Positions 61,219-61,810 of a stretch of DNA of 64,000 nt are shown here, one piece after another. The notes under the pieces were generated by a model that saw only the letters and a list, made by a program, of their open reading frames with translations, had not been told where the DNA came from and did not search any database. The DNA is from Escherichia coli (GTDB lineage: Bacteria > Pseudomonadota > Gammaproteobacteria > Enterobacterales > Enterobacteriaceae). A program made the position numbers and the translations under genes. The stretch's first letter is position 1, and each line of letters starts with the position of its first letter. The stretch lies in assembly GCF_009931435.1 (NCBI RefSeq), contig NZ_CP043414.1, one strand, 5' to 3'.

Positions 61219-61671
61219 CCATATAACCCGTTATCTCTTTCTCAAGTTTTTATATTAGCTGTACTTGTAATAAGCAACATATCCACATAACACCTCATGT
61301 TCAAAATAGTTCCCCATGCCAGATAAGTTCACAATTATCGATACAAAAAATCAAATTTAATCAAAGTGTTATATGTATAATCCTTAAACCGTTAAGAAAT
61401 TTTAATATATTATTTTTTTAATATTAATTAATGCCTGTTAATTTTTTCTTTAGAATAACAGTGTATTTTTTAAGCTTGTTATTCATTGATTAAGTAATAA
61501 ATCTGGAAGTTTGTCTTTGTTTTGAGGCTAATGAGTGGTTTTACATAACCGCCTCTATACGCTGTTGATGAATAGTTCTTATGAATAAAGATATCCAGTT
61601 CATACTTTAAGTGAAAATTGATAAAGTGCGATTCGTATTGTCTTTTATTCTAAAGACATCGAGTGTAGTTA

Positions 61672-61810
61672 ATATTCCTTGTAAAAACAGGGATAAACCG
61701 AACTAGTTAAAGTTTTTATTATGTTCCCTGCATCAGCGGGGATAAACCGGACTTGTTATCATTTTTTAAGTTGTCGAACTTATGTTCCCCGCGCCAGCGG
61801 GGATAACCAT
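61672..61810 (+). CRISPR. Degenerate mini-array: 3 decayed type I-E repeats (61672-61700, 61721-61749, 61782-61810) with a 20-bp and a 32-bp spacer
   Basis: Repeat-like units with 18/29, 24/29 and ~25/29 matches to consensus; preceded by AT-rich region. Confidence 0.6.

Follow-up and report, generated by a model that had tools for sequence, protein, structure and literature searches.

CRISPR2.2 of Escherichia coli very probably represents the leader-distal tail of the type I-E CRISPR-II array

The closest described counterpart of the locus analysed here is CRISPR2.2 of Escherichia coli, and in the passages cited below both CRISPR2.2 and the 0.5-kb separator have belonged to the E. coli CRISPR literature since 2010. 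CRISPR2.2 has been published as three repeats and two invariable spacers (passage on the array in PMC4489801), is also covered in a section of PMC3737337, and its nomenclature is credited to Diez-Villasenor et al. 2010 in the respective passages of citing papers. According to the corresponding passage of PMC3903273 the two arrays are 'separated by 0.5 kb' and leaders adjoin only CRISPR2.1 and 2.3, and passages of PMC2886076 and PMC10910852 describe a conserved AT-rich sequence of 0.5 kb that splits CRISPR2. A modified terminal repeat is reported for 86-100% of arrays (PMC2886076, passage on terminal repeats). In addition, the intergenic region between ygcE and queE contains one of the 78 'promoter islands' of E. 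coli (2901670_347; PMC2731890, PMC3661553 Table 1). RNA polymerase occupies this island in vivo, H-NS binding to it was seen in all data sets considered ('A' for all studies), and promoter islands are mostly silent (PMC2731890, PMC3661553).

The window, which is the whole stretch of 64,000 nucleotides that was analysed, contains at its end the E. coli type I-E CRISPR-II locus from queE/ygcF to ygcE (Table 1). The mini-array behind the AT-rich separator is very probably CRISPR2.2, the leader-distal tail of the CRISPR-II array. The published CRISPR2.2 and the mini-array of the window both lie between ygcE and ygcF/queE on the ygcE side, and both are characterised by three type-2 repeats, two invariable spacers, an AT-rich separator of ~0.5 kb, and the absence of a leader. 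The mini-array is 99.5% identical to the K-12 CRISPR2.2 over 184 bp, without any essential difference. Because the literature directly describes this structure, CRISPR2.2 is an already known feature and the novelty of the locus is low. The ghost repeats and the valley of diversity described below, of which the CRISPR2.2 passages of this literature make no mention, are modest additions to the known feature. The 612 bp at 61219-61830 are present as a single and always chromosomal copy in 4,533 of the 5,426 complete E. coli genomes (4,123 at a coverage of at least 80%), and the K-12 counterpart sits between ygcE and queE. The spacer set of the main array CRISPR2.3 of this strain is common to none of the 5,426 complete genomes. 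The last two repeats of CRISPR2.3 start with GTG and not with GAG, and the terminal one ends with ...AAACCA. Leader2.3 is 91-97% identical across E. coli and 92% identical in E. albertii. Judging from its computed fold, the G+C-rich hairpin close to the stop codon of ygcE is probably the ygcE terminator and would also end any transcript of the array; it was not called in the terminator scan because it does not have a T-run.

Table 1. Features of the CRISPR-II locus in window coordinates.
Feature	Position	Strand	Description
queE (ygcF)	59386..60057	+	CRISPR-II flanking core gene; ORF, annotated queE in homologous loci
Leader2.3	60058..60395	+	Intergenic, 338 bp, 32% G+C; leader of active array
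CRISPR2.3 main array	60396..61218	+	14 repeats, 13 spacers
Separator	61219..61671	.	453 bp AT-rich non-coding, between CRISPR2.3 and CRISPR2.2
Promoter island	61236..61582	.	K-12 U00096.2 2901670, length 347 (2,901,670-2,902,016, old coordinates); fast-evolving part
Ghost repeat A	61251..61279	+	Start lies exactly one 61-bp period behind that of the last main-array repeat
Ghost repeat B	61307..61330	+	TAGTTCCCCATGCCAG/ATAAGTTC, 5-bp deletion of CGGGG
Ghost repeat C	61363..61391	+	Only last 7 nt TAAACCG (61385-61391) left; weakest of the three
Conserved block	61554..61671	+	118 bp directly before repeat 1; 2 segregating sites vs 52 in the 335 bp to the left
Candidate sigma-70 promoter	61599..61627	+	TTCATA, 17 nt, TGaTAAAGT; found by eye, below scan threshold
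Repeat 1	61672..61700	+	ATATTCCTTGTAAAAACAGGGATAAACCG; 18/29 to main-array consensus GAGTTCCCCGCGCCAGCGGGGATAAACCG
Spacer 1	61701..61720	+	AACTAGTTAAAGTTTTTATT; 20 nt (32 minus 12)
Repeat 2	61721..61749	+	ATGTTCCCTGCATCAGCGGGGATAAACCG; 24/29 to consensus
Spacer 2	61750..61781	+	GACTTGTTATCATTTTTTAAGTTGTCGAACTT; 32 nt, canonical length
Repeat 3	61782..61809	+	ATGTTCCCCGCGCCAGCGGGGATAACCA; 24/29 ungapped
G+C-rich hairpin	61823..61848	.	9-bp stem, 8 nt past ygcE stop; computed fold
ygcE	61856..63334	-	FGGY-family sugar kinase; convergent flanking gene

The initial annotation had described about 450 bp of AT-rich DNA followed by three degenerate repeats with a 20-bp and a 32-bp spacer, oriented like the main array and with one A lost from the ATAAACC of the terminal repeat. 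All of this was confirmed: the separator has a G+C content of 27.6% compared to 49.2% of the window, repeats and spacers were found at the same positions and in the direction of the main array, and repeat 3 misses one A. Repeats 2 and 3 exceed the background by far because the best 29-mer match outside both arrays, considering both strands of the 64 kb, is 19/29; beyond the two arrays the window thus holds no CRISPR repeats. Repeat 1 alone is at background level with its 18 matching positions. It is, however, supported by the exact 11-mer GGGATAAACCG, for which we estimate a chance expectation of roughly 0.03 in 64 kb on both strands, by its start 49 bp before repeat 2, and by the predicted hairpin with a stem of 7 bp and a loop of 4 nt, which is shared by all three repeats (-7.9, -12.1, and -15.1 kcal/mol). 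The 3' handle ATAAACCG of repeat 1 is intact and its stem survives two double changes and one G-U pair, and the hairpin of repeat 2 contains one G-U pair and the loop AUCA. Repeats 1 and 2 retain the complete 8-nt handle AUAAACCG, which is shortened in repeat 3. One of the units is canonical (61 bp with a 32-nt spacer), and the other comprises 49 bp with a 20-nt spacer. In repeat match and hairpin the mini-array agrees with type I-E (repeat cluster 2), and in the predicted folds the hairpins and handles are well enough preserved for processing of the Cas6e type. The changes in the stem of repeat 1 were also considered as compensatory and thus as a sign of selection. This was rejected: only C>T and G>A occur among the stem changes, and they are no evidence of selection because the chance that two changes in the 3' arm face changed partners is already ~0.3 (estimate).

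CRISPR2.2 is essentially invariant across E. coli. Both spacers are the same in all 12 full-length E. coli alleles (15 alleles were read). Spacer 1 is identical in 14 of the E. coli alleles read and absent from the divergent E69 lineage, which does not have the 49-bp unit of this spacer. Spacer 2 is identical at 32/32 positions in 4,048 of 4,062 genomes and at 30/32 in E69, and repeat 1 is identical to that of E69 at 29/29 positions. Two strains (L007 and L097) have lost repeat 2 together with spacer 2 by a 61-bp deletion. An apparent insertion of 338 bp in H34 turned out to be an artefact of joining a match to a main-array repeat.

The remnant acquires no spacers and resembles neither of the E. 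coli type I-E leaders in sequence. A 191-bp probe of the mini-array has one length and at least 97.9% identity among the full-coverage matches listed (~4,124 genomes, spread sample), and is at least 99% identical in 3,013 genomes. Among these listed matches there is no spacer addition at CRISPR2.2, and only losses were seen in the alleles read. Thus, the spacers of CRISPR2.2 do not vary between strains, unlike those of CRISPR2.3, whose set is unique to the strain analysed here. The AT-rich DNA had been proposed to be a leader-like region belonging to the mini-array itself, with an alignment to the leader of the main array as a check. In this alignment (Smith-Waterman) the score of 61219-61671 against leader2.3 is z=1.2 (p~0.17) and that against the K-12 leader2.1 is z=0.2, which is within the shuffle distribution, while the positive control of leader2.3 against the K-12 leader2.1 reaches z=6.5. 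Leader homology was also not found by MAFFT or by BLAST at a word size of 9. Adaptation needs the ~60 repeat-proximal bp, with an IHF site within -35 and an integrase anchoring site at -50 to -53 (PMC5224486), and in these 60 bases the identity is 33% to leader2.3 and 22% to leader2.1 compared to 62% for the control pair. In addition, repeat 1, which adjoins the putative leader, is the most degenerate of the repeats, and this is the opposite of an acquiring array. As regards acquisition, the reading of the AT-rich DNA as a leader of its own is largely refuted. Because of the missing leader similarity, the missing acquisition, the degenerate repeat 1, and the ghost repeats, the mini-array is more plausibly the distal tail of a single old array than a locus of its own. 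From the 'eroded second locus' of the initial annotation the eroded remnant in the same orientation is therefore kept, and it equals the CRISPR2.2 of the passages in PMC4489801 and PMC3903273, whereas a leader-like region of its own is not supported; the left third of the separator is itself decayed array.

This decayed array is found in the left ~170 bp of the separator, which hold decayed repeat-spacer units, the first of them in the exact register of the main array. The homologue of ghost repeat A in the E69 allele (L009), TCGTTCCCTGTATCAGCAATAAATAACAT, matches the repeat-2-type consensus at 18/29 positions, with a null 99th percentile of 17. Ghost repeat B matches at 17/29 positions in the K-12 allele when aligned ungapped, and its local alignment AGTTCCCCATGCCAG at 61308-61322 at 13/15 (p~0.003). 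Ghost repeat C follows exactly 32 nt plus 29 nt after ghost repeat B, allowing for the 5-bp deletion in the latter. In each lineage a different ghost repeat has been eroded, and the ghosts therefore support each other; the separator of E69 is only 76% identical to that of the window. Beyond 61391 there are several ATAA-type motifs, none of which is above the AT-rich background, and the ~280 bp of 61392-61671 have no recognisable repeat remnant and no phage or plasmid similarity. The G+C content of the separator has its minimum at 18%, with 18-21% in 61325-61549. ORFs of at least 30 aa that lie wholly inside the separator were found neither on the plus strand between 61291 and 61610 nor on the minus strand. 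A 31-aa ORF at 61611-61706 was rejected as coding, because the substitutions compared to E69 are mostly amino-acid-changing as read from the alignment and the stop is displaced there. Rfam contains no family matching 61219-61860 even at E<=1.

Most of the separator coincides with the promoter island, whose coordinates were transferred with an offset of +1978 that was checked on the cas3/casA and queE/ygcG islands. Like the E. coli promoter islands in general, the interval of about 61236-61582 is AT-rich and, according to the papers describing them, bound by RNA polymerase and H-NS; the low G+C content was confirmed here. However, promoter islands are tied to horizontally acquired genes in those papers, whereas the present one has no attached acquired gene and derives, at least in its left part, from CRISPR units that decayed.

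The other end of the remnant is shared with relatives. In E. coli without the separator, leader2.3 is followed by one to five repeats and then by the truncated GGGGATAACCATTCAGG beside the ygcE hairpin, and E. albertii, E. whittamii, and Escherichia sp. MOD1-EC7003 have the same terminal repeat (GGGGATAACCA) and the same flank. As this terminal repeat is shared by single-array E. coli and three further Escherichia, repeat 3 marks where a single ancestral Escherichia array ended, and its A was lost long ago. In Citrobacter, Enterobacter, and other ygcE-bearing genera, the 4 kb downstream of ygcE that were examined contain no array. Either the single-array forms are ancestral, or they arose by repeat-repeat deletion, which is visibly active in L007, L097, and E69. 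In general, decay at the trailer end means that the distal repeat is 3'-truncated and that the oldest units are furthest from the leader, and both are also true here. In CRISPR2.2, however, the decay concerns several units over ~450 bp, and preservation is better in the last three repeats than in the middle.

From these data the history of the locus could be as follows. One array would once have run from leader2.3 to the truncated terminal repeat beside the ygcE terminator. Only the leader end, today's CRISPR2.3, would take up new spacers, and the older units behind CRISPR2.3 would have decayed to AT-rich DNA of which at least three ghost repeats are left. The rest of the separator would now be the 'promoter island' bound by H-NS and RNA polymerase, and the last three repeats with their two spacers would have survived as CRISPR2.2. 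The separator, being at least partly decayed array, would then be an example of old CRISPR units becoming AT-rich, H-NS-bound promoter-island DNA.

In more than 4,000 genomes, the array tail and the 118-bp block upstream of it make up a narrow valley where diversity is very low, and the tail has no known target. In 61554-61810 (NC_000913.3 2,903,420-2,903,676, minus strand) only 5 of 257 sites are segregating compared to 52 of 335 in the left flank, which is ~8-fold fewer (Fisher p=4e-9). Based on 12 diverse E. coli alleles, and for the mini-array on the 10 alleles with all three repeats, pi is 0.056 at four-fold sites of queE, 0.040 in leader2.3, 0.061 in 61219-61391, and 0.050 in 61392-61545, from where it falls to 0.008 in 61546-61671 and 0.007 in the mini-array (61672-61810) and rises again to 0.05 in the 45 bp around the ygcE hairpin. 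At the species level, an identity of at least 99% to the window is reached by 61219-61545 in 67 of 4,160 genomes, the typical value being 95.7%, and by 61546-61700 in 3,835 of 4,153 genomes. Compared to E69 the right block has 12.7% differences and no gaps, the left part 27% plus 35 gap columns, and the four-fold sites of ygcE have 28% differences; for 61554-61671 the identity is 87% without gaps compared to 73% in the left part. In 61554-61810, polymorphism is thus decreased about 8-fold and divergence to E69 about 2-fold. Constraint is indicated because both are lower. As polymorphism is lowered more than divergence, the spread of a haplotype may also have caused the low diversity. The decay is non-monotonic with the distal repeats being kept best, and therefore the distal block needs an explanation, which is either purifying selection or a recent species-wide homogenisation. 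Any function must be dispensable because natural deletions are found in L007/L097, E69, and the single-array strains.

The initial annotation had called for a search with spacer 2, and no protospacer was found. There is no target of spacer 2 in 50,697 phage records, 72,556 plasmids, IMG/VR, and 5,426 E. coli genomes, and the E. coli genomes do not contain a second site of this spacer. The matches of spacer 2 and the separator to phages and plasmids are at chance level (the best is 24/27 to a Klebsiella phage terminase, E=0.3). 'Hits' in plasmids of 4.8-4.9 Mb belong to mislabelled E. coli chromosomes, and the sole match in IMG/VR (L088) is nothing but this locus on the E. coli chromosome. The absence of a target counts against an immune role. 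It is also in agreement with CRISPR2.2 being a purely neutral relic, whose invariance would be the result of recent common ancestry or of one haplotype spread by recombination. We regard this as only a little short of an even chance. The degenerate repeats, the spacer truncated to 20 nt, the truncated terminal repeat, the viable deletion variants together with the loss of the whole locus, and the stronger reduction of polymorphism than of divergence would all be expected of such a relic. However, it is hard to reconcile with a valley that is only ~260 bp wide and has a pi of ~0.05 on both sides, including the short terminator region of ygcE, with the divergence to E69 that is lower as well, and with the almost complete identity of spacer 2 over the species.

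The separator might also be foreign DNA that was inserted into the single array and cut CRISPR2.2 off from its leader, which we consider doubtful. The very low G+C content of its central part would fit, and so would the absence of the separator from E. albertii, E. whittamii, Escherichia sp. MOD1-EC7003, and single-array E. coli. This absence, however, equally fits the repeat-repeat deletion seen in L007, L097, and E69. In addition, ghost repeats A to C make at least 61219-61391 array-derived, no phage or plasmid sequence similarity was found, and no terminal inverted or direct repeats were seen. The ~280 bp of 61392-61671 could still be inserted foreign DNA and not decayed array.

Within the reading of CRISPR2.2 as the tail of an old array, 61554-61810 might be under purifying selection as a small non-adaptive unit, which would provide fixed guide RNAs (one or two), or a structured RNA acting independently of Cas, for a host function, and the array tail would then have been domesticated. 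This seems unlikely. If the valley were caused by selection, it would mean a fixed crRNA-like element in the best-studied CRISPR system of E. coli. CreA/CreR regulators of type I systems are mini-CRISPRs composed of a degenerate repeat, a pseudo-spacer, and a repeat. CRISPR2.2 is similar to them in having degenerate repeats around a short spacer, in keeping hairpin and handle, and in its strong conservation, but differs in that there is no partial PAM-flanked target where tested, in its distance to the cas operon, and in its location at the end of a normal array. A CreA/CreR-type function, in which a fixed guide would direct Cascade to bind a partial match at a host or cas promoter without cleavage, is very unlikely for CRISPR2.2. 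Such a function would agree with the hairpin and 5' handle retained by the degenerate repeats, with the 20-nt spacer lying between the two most degenerate repeats, with the strongly conserved unit and upstream block, and with the co-occurrence with cas-E at the species scale, given that cas1e is found in 3,869 of 5,426 genomes and CRISPR2.2 in about 4,120. However, PAM-plus-seed matches of both spacers do not exceed the expectation from shuffled spacers in the K-12 cas locus and in the 64-kb window. The single match in the 42-kb cas locus of the closest genome is located inside ygbM, with 0.37 expected. CreR-type targeting of a cas promoter was thus rejected, as neither these cas loci nor the window contain a seed match beyond chance. 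In addition, the full cas3-cas2 operon of the genome closest over 61219-61830 does not adjoin the mini-array but starts ~16 kb beyond ygcE, and BL21, which does not have cas genes according to a passage of PMC3737337, retains an identical spacer 2.

It is hardly credible that CRISPR2.2 is an independent second CRISPR locus whose AT-rich DNA was once, or still is, a leader driving acquisition and transcription, because the AT-richness, the conserved 118 bp directly before repeat 1, a weak extended -10 promoter candidate kept in E69, and a published nomenclature that, in the passages cited above, counts CRISPR2.2 as a separate array are opposed by the missing leader similarity both globally and in the 60 repeat-proximal bases, the most degenerate repeat being repeat 1, the absence of added spacers among the matches listed (~4,124 genomes), the ghost repeats that fill the left part of the 'leader' in the register of the main array, and published leaders that, in the same passages, are found only beside CRISPR2.1 and 2.3.

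The conserved 118 bp are partly in favour of a local function other than that of a leader, for example as a promoter. As the tail of the CRISPR-II array, CRISPR2.2 could be transcribed in two ways. RNA polymerase would either read through from CRISPR2.3/leader2.3, there being no predicted intrinsic terminator on the way from the main array to the mini-array, or it would start at the candidate sigma-70 promoter, whose two hexamers are unchanged in E69. The plus strand of 61219-61671 has no promoter-like sites at the scan threshold, and the promoter scan of 60000-61900 resulted in 5 sites with 4.2 expected. From either transcript Cas6e could then release two crRNAs, a canonical one with spacer 2 and a short one whose 20-nt spacer is 12 nt below the normal length.

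The counterparts of 61219-61830 in other genomes mostly do not have any annotation from NCBI's pipeline. In repeat 3, the strain analysed here has a C and not a T at 61794, like O157:H7.

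Divergence is unevenly distributed along the locus. The ygcE allele of the window differs in about 5% of its nucleotides from K-12, O157:H7, and all other E. coli alleles sampled, and in the same comparison 18% of its four-fold sites are divergent. For comparison, the divergence is only about 2% in queE and 0.5% in the mini-array CRISPR2.2. Judged from these alignments, the queE-CRISPR-ygcE locus looks like a recombination mosaic. The spacer set of the main array, CRISPR2.3, is shared by none of the 5,426 complete E. coli genomes, among which the best overall match to 60058-61900 is 87.5%. 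NZ_CP169399.1 is identical over 61219-61830, and its main array comprises only three repeats. The first CRISPR2.3 spacer unit is 62 bp instead of 61 bp long and thus contains a 33-nt spacer, and the fifth spacer includes the inverted repeat GCTGACATTGTCAGC.

The repeats themselves vary along the two arrays. The 12 leader-proximal repeats of CRISPR2.3 start with GAG and the two oldest ones with GTG, and the CRISPR2.2 repeats carry a T at position 2 (ATG/ATA). According to PMC3737337, A and T repeat variants go together with different cas/leader modules. Therefore, the array may hold the trace of a past switch between repeat variants. In the divergent lineage of E. coli strain E69 (CP089930.1), where the region downstream of ygcE was read, the AT-rich separator has only 76% identity to the common separator. 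CRISPR2.2 of this strain consists of only two repeats and spacer 2, and the full GGGGATAAACC is still present in its terminal repeat. A type I-E array with at least 12 near-consensus repeats was also seen in Klebsiella spallanzanii (8730-9429 of the fetched locus). It is separated by about 3.2 kb from the ygcE homologue, on its downstream side, and reaches the end of that locus.

Upstream of queE, a LemA-family gene is followed by three ORFs, whose counterparts in homologous loci are TPM-domain genes, and parts of this region resemble one another (repeat families D4, D5, and D9). K-12 encodes yqcG-ygcG at this position instead, and each of the two arrangements is found among E. coli genomes. 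The tRNA-Met trio, GcvB, and CsrB are all present, which is what one expects in this chromosomal region of E. coli.

Positions of the features discussed, in window coordinates
Feature	Position	Strand
Three tandem tRNA-Met genes	9789-10085	
GcvB	14409-14614	
CsrB	37709-38068	
LemA-family gene and three ORFs	55627-59213	minus
First CRISPR2.3 spacer unit	60396-60458	
CRISPR2.3 repeats starting with GAG	60396-61096	
Fifth CRISPR2.3 spacer	60670-60701	
CRISPR2.3 repeats starting with GTG	61129-61218	
CRISPR2.2 repeats	61672-61809	
ygcE	61856-63334	minus

Some database records give misleading matches. The contig IMGVR_UViG_2531839665_000019, filed as viral in IMG/VR, carries leader2.3, CRISPR2.3, and CRISPR2.2 of the E. 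coli chromosome. This contig probably represents host DNA that was swept into a provirus call, and spacer matches to it are therefore self-matches. Similarly, three PLSDB 'plasmid' records of 4.8-4.9 Mb (matches H33-H35 and H104-H106) are E. coli chromosomes, which produce false plasmid matches for chromosomal queries.
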